Part shown: positions 1,982 through 52,338 of the stretch, in pieces
Layout: each line of letters opens with the position of its first letter
How positions within the stretch are numbered: the stretch's first letter is position 1
Origin: Escherichia coli
GTDB taxonomy: Bacteria; Pseudomonadota; Gammaproteobacteria; Enterobacterales; Enterobacteriaceae
Assembly (NCBI RefSeq): GCF_003019035.1
Contig: NZ_CP027447.1
Reading direction: 5' to 3' (one strand)
Length of the DNA stretch: 64,000 bases
Notes under the pieces: model-generated
What the model saw: the letters and a program-made list of their open reading frames with translations, nothing else
The model's database searches: none
What the model was told of the DNA's origin: nothing
Position numbers and translations under genes: made by a program

Positions 1982-3640
<1,659 letters not shown>

Positions 3641-3845
3641 TTACTTTTAGTCGCTTTATTGCAGGTGAGATTTGCGCGGCATCAACGGTAACACTTAAGT
3701 AACAACATTTAAATAATGTTTATAAATTATATTCTAATTTTAGAAACATTATAATTTCGTTGATTAATTATAGGGTTATTAGAAATGAAGGGATTTTTAG
3801 AATATTGACCTGGCGGCAGCAGTCCGCCAGGTCAGCGTCGAAATA

Positions 3846-5489
3846 TTATGCCGTCCGGGCAACGGCATCACGCGAAGCAGCATCGCGCTCTTCGCCTGTC
3901 AGCTCGCTAAGTTGCCCGTTGCGCATTTCCAGCAGGCGGTCAGCGTGGATAAAGTAATGATCATCATGACTGATGGCGAAAATCGTTTTACCCATCTCCT
4001 GCATCAGCGGTAGCAGCACCTGATAAAACTCACGGCGGAAGTGTGGGTCCTGATCCGCCGCCCATTCATCCAGCAGGATAATATCGCGTTCTTCTGCCAG
4101 CGCCAGCAACAGCGCGACGCGTTTTTTCTGCCCTTTTGATAACTTCAGGTTAACAATACGCCCGTTACTTAACTCAAGCTTATGAGCCATTTTCAGCTGC
4201 GCCAGCCACTTCTCAACCAGTTGCGGGTTAGCGGGTTGCCCCTCCGGCCCCAGCAGTTGATCAAACAGCCAGACATCGGTAAACACTGCCGAAAACAGTT
4301 TGCGATAATCTTCCGGTTGTTCGCCGCTGACAGGTTTGCCATCCAGCAAGATTTCGCCGCTTTGTGGCTGATACAAGCCCGTCAGCAACATCGCCAGCGT
4401 CGATTTTCCGCTACCGTTGCCACCAATCAGAAACAGCAGTTCGCCACGTTTGATGGTGAGGTTAATCGGCCCAACGGAAAACGCGTTATCCTGATAAGCA
4501 AACGTCACGTTACGCAGCTCCAGCGTTTGCCAGTTGGGAAACGCCTGCGGGCGCGGAAACTCTGCTTTGAAAGGCGCGAGCGCGAATTTGTTCAGCTTGT
4601 TAAACGCCACCTGCGCCGTCAGCAGCGTCGGCAATGCGCCAACTGCCGAAAGCAGCGGCGTACGCAGGAATAACAGCGTCAACGAATAGGTCGCGGCAAC
4701 GTTGGTATCAGCCCAACCGAGACTGTTCGCCATCCAGAACACCAGGCCGATAGCGCCCAGCATCATGATGTTTGACCAGTTCACGGCACTAAGATGGAAG
4801 GTGTCTGCGCGGATAATATGATGGCGATACTCTTGCGCATCAGGAATGTAGAGGTTGTTAAACACATACTCGGCGCGTTCCCGGTTCAGAGTCAGCTCTT
4901 TGCGCCCTTCGAGTACGGTTTGAAAATCCGTGTACAGCTTATCTTCGGTTTCACGCAGGGTCGCCATATGTTTGTACACCCGCGCCACCAGCACAAAACC
5001 GCCCCAGATGGTGACTGCCATCCAGATAGCCGTTACCAGCAACATTTTGCCCGACAGCATCCACAAATACGCCGCGGAACCGATAGTGAGAATGATCCCC
5101 TGCACCAGTTCCGGCAGACGCACAAAAGCAATGGTGATATTGCGCACATCGCTGGTTAACCCCGCCAGCAACGAAGCGCTACCAAGTTGTTCAATGCGCT
5201 CGACGTGGGTATCCAGAATCCGCTTGATAAATTCACTACGCAGTCGGTAAACGAAGTGATGCCCCAAAGTGGTGAGCGCCAGTTGCGATCCGAGAGTGAC
5301 TGCCATCAACAGCAACAATAATCCCAGAAACTCCGGCAACACCAGCAGACTGGTATCCGCCGTTTCGATAAGGCGCTGATTGATAAAAGCAATTAAGCCA
5401 ATGCCTAATGCCGCACTGGCGAGGCTTAGCGCCATCACACTGATAAATGGCCAGCGATACTGCCGCCAGACAAGTACAAGAAGTTCCAT
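3846..5489 (-). CDS. yojI: ABC transporter (fused permease/ATPase), microcin J25 efflux type
   Basis: 547-aa ORF; N-terminal TM domain, C-terminal Walker [10 protein letters not shown] and Walker [12 protein letters not shown]. Confidence 0.9.
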
Positions 5490-49346: not shown

Positions 49347-49997
49347 TTACATAGCGTAGTAATATGCTTTCACCTGCTCCCAGTCCGCTTTGGGGATCGG
49401 CTCCAGATATTTTTCCAGCTGGCGGAAGTCATGATTAATCGCTTTATCACGACGCAAGCGGCGACGACTTTTCTCCAGGTCAAGAAATCCAGCTTCTGCC
49501 TTACCTTCTGTTTTCACATAGATATGGCGAACATAACAACAGCCATGCTGACGATTAACGCTATGCATTTTCTTAAACGCCAGCGCCACTGCTTTCAACA
49601 TGGCTTGCCGTACTTCGTCAGAATAAGGCGATACTGCATGCCGGGCATACCAGTCAGCAATGCTGATGAACCCCGCCATATCTTCAGTCACCAGCAACGC
49701 GCGCCATTCCCCCTCAATTTTCACCGCTTCACCAAAAACGATCTTCGGCACGATGACACCAGCCCGTTCCAGTTCTTTAATTACCGCAACCTCACGGACA
49801 ATCGTTGGTCGACCGAACGGATAACGTACGGAATGAAACAGATGATGCGTCATGCGCTTTACATATAGCTTTTTGCCGTTGCGCTCGACGCATTGCACCC
49901 CGCTCATACCATTACGGCGATAGTTAGGCTCTTCAACCCAGTCGCCCTCTGTTGCCCACCAGTGATTAAATTCGTCGTGCTTTGCTGAAACTGCCAT
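49347..49997 (-). CDS. inaA: InaA, acid-inducible Kdo/WaaP-family kinase-like protein
   Basis: 216-aa ORF MAVSAKHDEFNHWWATEGDWVEEPNYRRNGMSGVQ... Confidence 0.9.
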   Translation of the reverse strand: MAVSAKHDEFNHWWATEGDWVEEPNYRRNGMSGVQCVERNGKKLYVKRMTHHLFHSVRYPFGRPTIVREVAVIKELERAGVIVPKIVFGEAVKIEGEWRALLVTEDMAGFISIADWYARHAVSPYSDEVRQAMLKAVALAFKKMHSVNRQHGCCYVRHIYVKTEGKAEAGFLDLEKSRRRLRRDKAINHDFRQLEKYLEPIPKADWEQVKAYYYAM

Positions 49998-50077: not shown

Positions 50078-51268
50078 TTAATGAATTTCTTTTGCCGCTA
50101 CTAGCATGACACCGCTTTTGCCCTTCATTTGCAGCGCATAGACTCCACCAGCCACTACCACTAATAGTGCACCCAGCAGATAAATCATTCGGTAGCCAGT
50201 ATGTGCAACCATCATCCCCATCACACAGGCTCCCAGCGCCAGGCCTGCATCCATCGCATTGAAGAAGAGGGAGTTTGCGACACCGATTTTATGCGGTTCC
50301 ACTGAACTGATAATCTGCGTCTGAAAAACTGGCGTCACGGAACCATACCCGATACCAATCAACGCGCCAGAAACAACCATCATTATGCTTCCCTGGGTGT
50401 AGCCGAGAACCACCAGTCCAACCGTAAAGAACACAAGGCAAGGGTAAACCACATATTTCGGTCCTTTTTTGTCGCAGACATTGCCGGTAAAGGTACGGCA
50501 GATCATCAGGAAGATAGCGTAGCAAAGCAGGAAATTACTGGCTGCCGACATCAGGTTAAGTTCGCGTGCATAAAGCGCCAGAAAAGCAGAAACCCCGGCA
50601 TACGAAAAGGTCATAAAAAAGGTGACCATCGCAAATGGCAACGCCGCGCGATCGAACATGGCGGCGAAGCCCATTTTCGGCGTTGAACCATCAGCATGGC
50701 TGATAACCGGCGGCACTGTCATAATCAGCGACAGAATAATCCCCACCGCTGCCACGCCGGTGCATAACCAGAAAGCCATATTAAAGGCCTCCCAGCGCGC
50801 CATATTCAGGCCAATCCACGGCCCGACCACCATTGCCAGCCCCATTGCCAGAGAGAAAAAACTGATGCCCTCCCCACGTCGGGAGGCCGGGATCAGCCGC
50901 GCGGAAATCGTTCCTTTTACCGTAGTGATAACCCCGAAGGTAATACCATGAAGCACCCGAATAAAAAGCAGTGATTCAATTGAGTGGCAAAAAGGATACA
51001 GCGCAGTGACCACCAAGAAGGCCAGAGAAGAGAGCCCCAGAATAGTTTTATTCGAATATTTGCCCACCCATTGCCCGGCAAAGGGGCGAATAACAATGGC
51101 GGCAATTAAAAATAAAGTCACCAACAAACCTGCTTTATCAGGAGAGGCATGCAAGCGGTCTGAGATATAAATTGGCAACAATGTTAGTAAAACATAAAAG
51201 ACGAAGAAAATAATAAAACTGATGATGGTTATTGCCCAAAAATCCTTCGTCCATAACTTCTCTTTCAT
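50078..51268 (-). CDS. MFS transporter (12-TM, efflux-type)
   Basis: 396-aa polytopic ORF MKEKLWTKDFWAITIISFIIFFVF...; divergent from the adjacent LysR gene. Confidence 0.8.
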   Translation of the reverse strand: MKEKLWTKDFWAITIISFIIFFVFYVLLTLLPIYISDRLHASPDKAGLLVTLFLIAAIVIRPFAGQWVGKYSNKTILGLSSLAFLVVTALYPFCHSIESLLFIRVLHGITFGVITTVKGTISARLIPASRRGEGISFFSLAMGLAMVVGPWIGLNMARWEAFNMAFWLCTGVAAVGIILSLIMTVPPVISHADGSTPKMGFAAMFDRAALPFAMVTFFMTFSYAGVSAFLALYARELNLMSAASNFLLCYAIFLMICRTFTGNVCDKKGPKYVVYPCLVFFTVGLVVLGYTQGSIMMVVSGALIGIGYGSVTPVFQTQIISSVEPHKIGVANSLFFNAMDAGLALGACVMGMMVAHTGYRMIYLLGALLVVVAGGVYALQMKGKSGVMLVAAKEIH

Positions 51269-51419
51269 ACCCTACCGCCTGTCAGGATGACGCACGCAGA
51301 CAACACTCCCGTTACTGCGGTTGCGTCAAATTGTGATGTACTTTGCAGAACAGAAGTATAAATGGCGGCATGCTATTAGAGAAATTAATCGTTTTAATAT
51401 TATTGATTAGCAAACTCTA

Positions 51420-52319
51420 ATGACTCTTACCCAAATAAATTCTTTACTCGCCGTGCTGGATTACGGTGGCTTTACTGAAGCCAGCAAGCGATTGTTCATG
51501 ACGCAGTCGGCGGTAAGTCAGGCAATTGCTGCCCTCGAACAAGAACTTGGCGTGAATATACTGTTACGCGATCGCCGTAAAGCTATACAACTGACCTCTG
51601 CAGGTCACCGCATTATGCATCATCTGCGCGCCATTAATCGGGAAGTGAACGCAGTAAAAGAGATAGCCGAGCAGGAAAAGCAGAACCCTCAAAGAACGCT
51701 GAGACTTGGTTGTTTCCCCAGCGTCTGCGCCTGTATCTTACCGGCTGTGATTCGCTACTTTGAAATTCATCATCCGAATATAAAAATTATTCCTTTTGAG
51801 GAAAATAGCACAGCGATTATTGATTCCCTTCAGAATGAATCCATTGATGCCGGTTTTGTTCATTTTCCGGTGAGCGGAATGTACTCCGTGCCCATTTATC
51901 AGGATAAATTCACCGTAGTGTTACCGCCCAACCATGCTCTGGCAAAAAACAGCACTATTACAGTGGAAGAGTTAATGGGTGAACCATTAATTATTAGTAA
52001 AGGACGCTATGAATTAAGCATTATGGCACTATTTAAAGAAAAGAATATTACCCCACAGATAAAATATGAATTTAATCACCCGGATACAGCGATCAGTTTT
52101 ATTCGACAGGGATTAGGCATCGCCTTATTACCAGAGTTAACGCTGAAAACCATTGCAGATGAATTGTGTTCCGTTCCTCTCGAACCAACCTTCTATCGAC
52201 AGATTTCGTTGCTGACTAAAGAAAAGCCGGTAGAAGGCAGTCCACTGTTTTTACTACAAATGTGCACAGAACAATTAGTGGAGAGTGGAAAATTTGATAT
52301 GAGACAGGATGGCGCATGA
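51420..52319 (+). CDS. yfaH: LysR-family transcriptional regulator (full-length counterpart of the K-12 yfaH fragment)
   Basis: 299-aa ORF with N-terminal HTH (FTEASKRLFMTQSAVSQAIAALE) and LysR substrate-binding domain. Confidence 0.8.
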   Translation: MTLTQINSLLAVLDYGGFTEASKRLFMTQSAVSQAIAALEQELGVNILLRDRRKAIQLTSAGHRIMHHLRAINREVNAVKEIAEQEKQNPQRTLRLGCFPSVCACILPAVIRYFEIHHPNIKIIPFEENSTAIIDSLQNESIDAGFVHFPVSGMYSVPIYQDKFTVVLPPNHALAKNSTITVEELMGEPLIISKGRYELSIMALFKEKNITPQIKYEFNHPDTAISFIRQGLGIALLPELTLKTIADELCSVPLEPTFYRQISLLTKEKPVEGSPLFLLQMCTEQLVESGKFDMRQDGA

Positions 52320-52338
52320 ACGCCATCCTGCAGTAGCA

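Follow-up and report, generated by a model that had tools for sequence, protein, structure and literature searches.

The locus lies within a 64-kb stretch of Escherichia coli DNA that was analyzed at its full length (the window). Two genes, coding for a Major Facilitator Superfamily (MFS) protein and a LysR-type regulator, are arranged divergently between inaA and glpQ:

50078..51268, minus strand: MFS transporter gene (ORF, 396 aa, ATG start)
51269..51419: divergent control region common to both genes (151 bp between the ORFs)
51420..52319, plus strand: LysR-type regulator gene (ORF, 299 aa, ATG start)
49347..49997, minus strand: inaA, flank
from 52339, minus strand: glpQ, flank, convergent with the LysR gene

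The gene lengths, the strands, the 151-bp gap, and the position between inaA and glpQ given by an earlier, sequence-only reading of this DNA are reproduced exactly in the ORF list. Identical sequences from strain SCU-301 are annotated in RefSeq as WP_096987104.1 ("MFS transporter") and WP_096987103.1 ("LysR family transcriptional regulator"). Together with the Pfam matches and dN/dS values given below, this annotation indicates that both ORFs are real genes and not chance ORFs. They form an ordinary regulator-transporter pair, already annotated, and nothing about them goes against current understanding. More than 500 homologs in databases carry only generic names, and the literature contained no evidence on the regulation, binding, or substrate of the LysR-MFS pair. 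The K-12 gene yfaH, found at the same place, receives incidental mentions only, and searches with the RefSeq accessions or with STM2280/STM2281, which we take to be the Salmonella locus tags of the pair, returned nothing.

The transporter and its direction of transport

The MFS protein matches Pfam MFS_1 (PF07690) with an E value of 2.2e-59 and 201.6 bits (gathering cut-off 33.4) over residues 14-346, which correspond to model positions 2-346 of 347; its membership in the superfamily is clear from the profiles. In a simple hydropathy scan, the N half shows six clear segments; the C half shows five to six, TM11 (approximately aa 334-354) being below threshold. About 12 TM segments are predicted. 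Motif A was sought as a G-x-x-x-D-[RK]-x-G-[RK]-[RK]-like pattern in the TM2-3 and/or TM8-9 loop. A motif-A-like GNVCDKKGPK is present at aa 262-271, and the N-half copy is degenerate (GQWVGKYSNK, aa 65-74, where G replaces D). Predicted TM5 contains GP, and a GP-containing TM5 motif is typical of antiporters. Orthologs in outgroups are full length (1-396), with dN/dS of 0.05-0.09; within E. coli, comparison with O157 gave 0.05.

When compared with named transporter families, the protein fell far below every NCBIfam family cut-off. Its closest characterized or solved relatives (NorA, SotB, and YhhS) are exporters, at low identity, and CntE and other efflux models are among its NCBIfam matches. 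This weak family resemblance suggests that the protein more probably exports its substrate than imports it.

A possible, if rather unlikely, alternative leaves the module and its history the same and has the MFS protein take up a nutrient or signal by proton symport, with LysR inducing the transporter when the compound is present. MFS_1 proteins of similar size do include importers, weak NCBIfam matches to aromatic-acid, sialate, galactonate, and MhpT symporter models were obtained, and LysR-type transcriptional regulators (LTTRs) often control uptake or catabolic genes. The symporter matches, however, span just half of the MFS protein, whereas the best full-length or solved relatives are the exporters YhhS, CntE, NorA, and SotB, and in none of the lineages examined does the pair have a linked gene for a catabolic enzyme.

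The regulator and the shared control region

Pfam matches place HTH_1 at aa 3-63 of the LysR protein (65.5 bits, E 4e-18) and the LysR_substrate domain at aa 88-268 (128 bits, E 4e-37). The domain order of LTTRs (N-terminal HTH_1, C-terminal LysR_substrate) and their size of approximately 300 aa are thus both present, as is the typical divergent target gene with a shared control region (151 bp). The dN/dS of the regulator is 0.04-0.08 versus outgroups and 0.22 within E. coli, versus O157. Apart from PRK09729, treated below, no NCBIfam equivalog model reached its cut-off with this protein, the best being GltC (130 versus 350 bits).

Alignment of the control region over 24 orthologous loci revealed two conserved blocks:

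51375..51410: operator-like block ATTAGAGAAATTAATCGTTTTAATATTATTGATTAG, near-invariant, 10-45 bp upstream of the LysR ATG
51322..51338: second conserved block TGCGTCAAATTGTGAT, TGTGA invariant

The search for T-N11-A LysR boxes that the sequence-only reading had proposed did find sites in the control region, but their number (13, compared with 11.7 ± 2.5 in shuffles) is uninformative. For this reason, we relied on conservation and on the stricter ATTA-N7-TAAT dyad. The operator-like block, whose conservation was seen in about 15 genus-level representatives, contains two such dyads that overlap (51375-51389 and 51384-51398) and each fit T-N11-A; these are the sole ATTA-N7-TAAT matches in the 64-kb window. 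Likewise, the window has a single copy of the 24-nt operator core, and chance would give 0. The block is presumed to be the LysR recognition site, at which the regulator would bind. When it was sought in the Firmicutes relatives, it was not found.

On the MFS strand, the second conserved block reads ATCACAATTTGACGCA and contains a -35-like TTGACG. It could represent the -35 element of the MFS promoter, an LTTR activation site, or a site for another factor. A sigma-70 promoter scan of the 151-bp region detected no consensus-like promoter, which is compatible with activator dependence. No Rfam family scored above threshold in the control region, and a sub-threshold match (to a Drosophila lncRNA) was dismissed as chance. 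A riboswitch or leader structure 5' of the MFS gene was also considered and rejected: RNAalifold applied to 13 orthologous leaders returned -0.18 kcal/mol and three pairs, with no covariation.

The divergent LysR-MFS arrangement is found in all enterobacterial orthologs and in the Neobacillus and Desulfosporosinus relatives. Next to the distant MFS relatives (Neobacillus, Desulfosporosinus, and Leminorella), the LysR gene is the sole conserved neighbor. Distant neighborhoods were also inspected for hints of the substrate and discarded for that use, as the neighbors vary (radical SAM and dienelactone hydrolase; Usp and SDR; DsbB).

It could be argued that LysR mainly regulates other genes (glpQ-glpT, inaA, or distant ones) and that its adjacency to the MFS gene is incidental. 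LTTR regulons can exceed the divergent gene, and the pair has long been embedded beside glpTQ. Yet the single occurrence of the conserved operator core falls in the shared control region, the LysR-MFS adjacency persists with different flanks (in Leminorella and Neobacillus), and K-12 and B2 strains have lost both genes together while glpTQ and inaA stay. We consider this possibility improbable.

Ancestry of the pair and its repeated loss in E. coli

The same divergent pair with the same flanks is present in an Escherichia cryptic-clade genome, E. whittamii, Kluyvera, Klebsiella spallanzanii, Pluralibacter, Superficieibacter, Phytobacter, Pseudocitrobacter, six Citrobacter, and Salmonella enterica (subsp. 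arizonae, subsp. diarizonae, and a third S. enterica assembly). In the outgroups, it is located between glpQ/glpT and yfaE/nrdB. As judged by this synteny, the intact pair is ancestral at exactly this site in Enterobacteriaceae, and dN/dS values of 0.04-0.09 versus outgroups indicate that it is under purifying selection.

In MG1655 (NC_000913.3), the pseudogene yfaH (b2238, 207 bp) is the sole gene between inaA and glpQ, as the sequence-only reading had stated for K-12. The alignment to MG1655 that had been proposed as a check detected no full-length copy of either gene and defined a deletion. The segments missing from K-12 and from B2-type strains, and a hairpin at the edge of the latter, are as follows:

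50185..52063: segment missing in K-12 MG1655, 1,879 bp (pairwise alignment)
50098..52306: segment missing in B2-type strains (e.g., NC101), 2,209 bp, with approximately 70 bp of unrelated filler instead
52305..52330: hairpin CAGGATGGCG-CATGAA-CGCCATCCTG between the convergent LysR and glpQ genes, with the LysR stop in its loop

The K-12 junction is an 8-bp direct repeat, CAGATAAA, copies of which occupy 50177-50184 and 52056-52063 of the window. Approximately 361 MFS codons, the entire 151-bp control region, and approximately 215 LysR codons are lost. What remains is the 3' end of each gene (approximately 107 nt in the case of MFS), which shows that the K-12 state arose by deletion. Hence the proposal that the window preserves an ancestral intact state deleted in K-12 is sustained, by the remnants of both genes and by outgroup synteny. 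To judge from the junction, K-12 and most A/B1-type strains carry a single 1,879-bp deletion that occurred via microhomology. The B2 deletion is judged to be independent of it. All that B2-type strains retain is the hairpin and a stretch that agrees in fixed register with the final 20 nt of the MFS gene at 14 of 20 positions. The filler of approximately 70 bp was examined as a possible LysR remnant and rejected, its local alignment being no better than that of shuffles (72/300 reach the score).

A census of 5,426 complete E. coli genomes found the intact pair in approximately 23%, the K-12 junction in 3,132 (approximately 58%), and the B2-type junction, a separate and larger deletion, in 1,058 (approximately 19.5%). 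IS insertions and an internal stop are present at the locus in other strains. O157:H7, ST69, and many commensals carry the pair; B2 ExPEC lineages and the standard laboratory strain do not. That it has been lost repeatedly in E. coli (approximately 77% of genomes) shows that the species can dispense with it in many niches.

Three observations go beyond what had been noted before: the MFS remnant in K-12, the second, independent deletion in B2, and an extra gene inserted in many pair-bearing strains. The inserted gene is an orphan of 356 aa that follows LysR in approximately 19% of the 5,426 genomes and is absent from the window and from all true outgroups; it matched no family in Pfam, NCBIfam, or PADLOC. 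At the left edge of the hairpin (52306/52307), the B2-type deletion has its right breakpoint, and O157-type strains have the third gene inserted at the same point. The hairpin is stable, folding with -19.6 kcal/mol on the plus strand (z -3.9) and -22.5 kcal/mol on the minus strand (z -6.0). It was not called by a terminator scan because it has no T-run. The stem is conserved in E. whittamii and the cryptic-clade genome, where the loop differs, and in Escherichia outgroups the LysR stop, the hairpin, and glpQ follow in the same order as in the window. The architecture of the window (both genes of the pair, LysR directly next to the hairpin and glpQ, no third gene) is therefore, by comparison with the outgroups, the ancestral one.

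The regulator of the window differs from its orthologs at the C terminus, due to a single run of A residues:

52289..52292, plus strand: A4 run, A5 in other alleles (3' junction alignment and translated C-termini)

The LysR protein has 292 aa in O157:H7, E. whittamii, the Escherichia cryptic-clade genome, and Salmonella, and 292 aa is, by this comparison, the ancestral length. The window protein has 299 aa because the 1-nt shorter run skips the normal stop: the last ancestral residue is replaced by a frameshifted eight-residue tail, FDMRQDGA (net gain of seven residues), that ends at a TGA within the loop of the downstream hairpin. This 1-nt deletion, as well as the loss or disruption of the locus in most E. 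coli (including the IS insertions and internal stop seen elsewhere), would be expected if the window copy were decaying, recently inactivated and heading for loss. Such a state appears quite improbable, however, since neither ORF is truncated and the domains are intact, the LysR_substrate domain stops (at approximately aa 268) short of the altered tail, and dN/dS is low even within E. coli. We give next to no credence to a horizontally acquired islet in this strain, with the K-12 or B2 state as the original empty site: the LysR G+C of about 0.39-0.44 (below the flanks), Firmicutes relatives at 55% identity, and B2 strains without a recognizable internal remnant would be in line with it, but on the E. 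coli time-scale it is, as we read the remnants and the outgroup synteny, refuted by the two 3' ends joined at microhomology in K-12, the MFS-end match and hairpin retained in B2, and a pair syntenic over more than 10 enterobacterial genera, which leaves room for an ancient acquisition, before the Enterobacteriaceae radiation.

Proposed mechanism and comparison with known systems

We propose, as the probable explanation of the whole, that the locus is an ancestral, self-contained module of two genes, an LTTR divergent from an MFS transporter, that was deleted in K-12 and in which an operator would control a probable exporter. Autoregulation and co-inducer-dependent activation are expected in the LTTR family. 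LysR would bind the conserved ATTA-N7-TAAT dyads, which lie shortly before its start codon, and, when bound, would repress its own transcription. Together with a small-molecule co-inducer, it would activate a weak MFS promoter approximately 60-110 bp away, and the MFS protein would move the co-inducer, or a related molecule, over the inner membrane in a proton-coupled manner. A further step, which we regard as doubtful, would make the pair a sensor-exporter dedicated to one particular metabolite of host or microbiota origin and conserved across Enterobacteriaceae, its repeated losses in E. coli reflecting niche-dependent selection (antagonistic pleiotropy) and not neutral decay. If so, presence or absence of the pair should predict a measurable tolerance or colonization phenotype that is invisible to K-12-based studies.

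The value of these findings is mainly one of bookkeeping. They show that K-12 yfaH is what is left of an ancient enterobacterial module of regulator and transporter, and they define the deletion exactly; K-12-centered catalogs and screens could not assign a function to the module because it is missing from K-12. The multi-state polymorphism (intact; intact with the extra gene; two deletions; a divergent allele) is a convenient lineage marker, and on a small scale the locus illustrates reductive evolution and recombination at one site.

Of known systems, yfaH is at the same locus. Its 68-codon frame corresponds to about residues 226-292 of the window LysR, and translated MG1655 yfaH aligns with the LysR C-terminus. 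The YfaH equivalog model PRK09729 matches LysR residues 226-291 (model 2-67 of 68) with 139.6 bits versus a cut-off of 139. Compared with the window gene, yfaH is a C-terminal remnant only, devoid of the HTH, most of the effector domain, the promoter/operator, and the partner transporter.

For the MFS protein, the best full-length family models are those of YfcJ (PRK05122; 109.3 bits versus a cut-off of 374) and YhhS (PRK12382; 85.1 versus 364), and it is a member of neither. YhhS aligns over approximately 376 residues (24% identity, E 2e-12), whereas the match to YfcJ is weak and partial (approximately 120 residues). Both resemble the MFS protein in length and predicted 12-TM layout, but in K-12 their genes have no adjacent divergent LysR gene. 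The closest solved chains by sequence, at low similarity, are Staphylococcus aureus NorA (7LO7, 8TTF), whose N-domain matches the N-terminal half only (E 2.4e-13), and the E. coli sugar efflux transporter SotB (6KKI), which matches over the full length (E 7e-5). Like the MFS protein, these DHA1-type exporters belong to the MFS_1 fold family and have a TM5 motif with GP.

The regulator has the same domain order, size, and divergent arrangement as the classical LTTRs CysB, BenM/CatM, CynR, and OxyR, and, as at their loci, an A/T-rich T-N11-A dyad is located in the shared region. Compared with those systems, the operator-like block, at 10-45 bp from the regulator's own start codon, is unusually close.

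The MFS/LysR pair and its deletion in K-12

Between inaA and glpQ the window carries a divergent gene pair, with nrdA, nrdB, yfaE and inaA upstream and glpQ and glpT downstream. The ORF listing agrees exactly with the coordinates, lengths, strands and gap given for the pair in the sequence-only reading. The features, together with a hairpin between the convergent LysR and glpQ genes, are:

50078..51268, minus strand: MFS transporter gene, 396 aa (MFS_1 full length, E 2.2e-59)
51269..51419: divergent gap between the MFS and LysR genes, 151 bp
51420..52319, plus strand: LysR-type regulator gene, 299 aa (HTH_1 and LysR_substrate)
52305..52330: stable hairpin (fold -19.6 and -22.5 kcal/mol, z -3.9 and -6.0, for the plus and minus strands, respectively)

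No T-run is present in the hairpin. The 4.2-kb region is 100% identical in SCU-301, a human commensal E. coli, in which RefSeq labels the genes "MFS transporter" and "LysR family transcriptional regulator". These are ordinary, previously annotated genes, and their absence from K-12 is already signalled by the annotation of the pseudogene yfaH. The LysR allele of the window has A4 at 52289..52292 instead of the A5 of other alleles, whose 292-aa product ends in ...SGKI*; as a result, it gains eight codons (FDMRQDGA) and stops at a TGA that lies within the loop of the hairpin. The altered tail lies beyond the effector domain.

The locus had been proposed to represent an ancestral intact state that was deleted in K-12. 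MG1655 does not contain both full-length genes; between inaA and glpQ it carries only yfaH (b2238). Alignment to MG1655 defines the missing segment as window 50185..52063 (1,879 bp), with the K-12 junction inside a microhomology, the 8-bp direct repeat CAGATAAA, found in the window at 50177-50184 and 52056-52063. About 361 MFS codons, the entire control region and about 215 LysR codons are lost; what remains is the 3'-terminal 107 nt of MFS and the 3' end of LysR. The MG1655 yfaH translation aligns with the C terminus of the window LysR, and the NCBIfam equivalog model of K-12 YfaH matches LysR residues 226-291. Because remnants of both genes remain, the K-12 state is derived.

Ancestry of the pair

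To examine synteny, we scanned species-representative genomes and then ran tblastn with the flanking proteins. The same divergent pair lies between glpT-glpQ and yfaE-nrdB in an Escherichia cryptic-clade genome and in E. whittamii. It occupies the same site in Salmonella enterica (subsp. arizonae, subsp. diarizonae and a third assembly), six Citrobacter, Kluyvera, Klebsiella spallanzanii, Pluralibacter, Superficieibacter, Phytobacter and Pseudocitrobacter. At a second cryptic-clade locus the sequence ends before glpQ, and the gene order on the other side is the same. This synteny across genera proves that the pair is ancestral; with the remnants in K-12, it bears out the proposal of an intact ancestral locus. 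Pairwise dN/dS values against the outgroups (0.05-0.09 for MFS, 0.04-0.08 for LysR) indicate that the module is old and under purifying selection.

At this site inaA (window copy 49347-49997) was found in Escherichia and in one Pseudocitrobacter MAG. No inaA separates MFS from yfaE in Salmonella, Citrobacter, Kluyvera, Klebsiella spallanzanii and other genera, so that in most non-Escherichia genera the MFS gene adjoins yfaE directly. Hence the pair is more widely conserved here than inaA.

Distant MFS relatives occur in Firmicutes, with 55% identity in Desulfosporosinus and Bacillus sp. EB600 and ~34% in Neobacillus; a divergent LysR gene adjoins the copies in Desulfosporosinus and Neobacillus, where the other neighbours are unrelated. 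The 55% identity in Desulfosporosinus sp. FKB and Bacillus sp. EB600 is far closer than the ~34% in other Bacilli, making these genes candidates for cross-phylum transfer. A 3.5-kb contig labelled "MAG: Collinsella sp." (JAIJJM010000334.1) carries E. coli MFS (99%), LysR (99%) and the third gene described below (93%), and almost certainly reflects E. coli DNA that contaminated the bin.

Allelic states across E. coli

Alleles were counted in 5,426 complete E. coli genomes, a biased sample, and the locus is a multi-state polymorphism. The core deleted in K-12 was found in 1,232 genomes (1,216 at >=80% coverage), the K-12 junction in 3,132 and a B2-type junction (exemplified by B2 strain NC101) in 1,058; these classes combined cover about 5,406 of the 5,426. 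B2-type strains have ~70 bp in place of window 50098..52306. This filler shows no significant similarity to the pair, and its reading as a recognisable LysR remnant was rejected. B2 strains nevertheless keep a 14/20 fixed-register match to MFS over its final 20 nt, as well as a hairpin copy that has diverged; together with the outgroup data, these features identify the B2 state as a second, independent deletion.

In O157:H7 (Z1813, locus 3507-5215), a 1,709-bp insertion with an orphan 356-aa gene (product WP_001301786.1) separates the LysR stop from the hairpin, at the point that corresponds to window 52306/52307; in all, 1,053 of the 5,426 genomes carry it. LysR is not shortened by the insertion, whose ends show only an imperfect ~16-bp repeat (TAAGACATGAGATTG / TTAGCAGAGGATGG). 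The product matched no Pfam, NCBIfam or PADLOC family. The third gene was absent from all true outgroups examined, and Escherichia outgroups have the order LysR stop, hairpin, glpQ, identical to that of the window. We conclude that the window architecture is ancestral and that the orphan gene was inserted later than the pair. The pair without the third gene, contiguous as in the window, was found in 507 genomes; approximate counts by subtraction are 600-700 for the pair with the third gene and 350-450 for the K-12 deletion with it, a combination for which example genomes exist.

The B2 deletion has its right breakpoint, and the third gene its insertion site, at one position, the left edge of the hairpin (52306/52307); the frameshifted LysR tail of the window likewise terminates within the loop. 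Rearrangement appears to recur at this edge. IS1, IS5 and IS66-family insertions in or beside the MFS, LysR or third gene of several E. coli genomes are additional independent disruptions.

Synonymous divergence from the O157 allele is ~3.6-fold higher in MFS (50078-51268, dS 0.17) than in LysR (51420-52295, dS 0.047), which points to a mosaic, recombinant history inside the pair. A deeply divergent allele is present in E. coli LR-48 (NZ_AP027543.1, 2379-4612); about 100 genomes that matched at 80-90% identity in the core search are linked with this type. Its LysR gene has only ~75% nucleotide identity to every sampled allele, Salmonella and Citrobacter included; its control region looks Salmonella-like, its hairpin before glpQ differs, and an internal stop interrupts its MFS gene. 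These features suggest either that the allele was imported from a lineage that has not been sampled or that it is very old.

Control region and predicted function

A search of 51269..51419 for T-N11-A boxes, proposed earlier as a route to the LysR site, returned bare sites at chance frequency. Phylogenetic footprinting of 24 loci gave three conserved blocks:

51375..51410: near-invariant block ATTAGAGAAATTAATCGTTTTAATATTATTGATTAG, candidate operator, 10-45 bp upstream of the LysR ATG
51322..51338: second block TGCGTCAAATTGTGAT with invariant TGTGA and, on the MFS strand, a -35-like TTGACG
51288-51300: block GACGCACGCAG, reading CTGCGYGCGYC on the MFS strand

The first block holds two overlapping ATTA-N7-TAAT dyads, the only two matches to this pattern in the 64-kb window, and its 24-nt core is unique there (0 expected by chance). 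We consider it a well-conserved candidate operator. The other two blocks, in the MFS-proximal half, together form a GACGCA...TGCGTC inverted repeat. Conserved RNA structure was neither supported for this repeat nor found in the MFS leader, the promoter scan detected no consensus sigma-70 promoter in the control region, and no Rfam family was found there.

The pair is best read as a classical LTTR-controlled transporter module. As inferred from the family, the regulator would bind the conserved dyads and repress its own transcription; when bound by co-inducer, it would activate the weak divergent MFS promoter, and the transporter would export the co-inducer or a related compound by proton antiport. 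That the transporter imports rather than exports is a serious alternative. The names of >500 database homologs are all generic, and a literature search found no paper on the pair.

The window LysR resembles many LTTRs (CysB, BenM, OxyR, GltC, CidR), none at equivalog level. The MFS protein contains a loop resembling motif A (GNVCDKKGPK), and its predicted TM5 includes a GP. Its best family matches are the YfcJ/YhhS-type models PRK05122 and PRK12382, with scores far under the cut-offs; YhhS itself is 24% identical over ~376 residues, and YfcJ matches weakly. Of the solved structures, two exporters are nearest to it: NorA, in the N half (E 2e-13), and SotB (E 7e-5).
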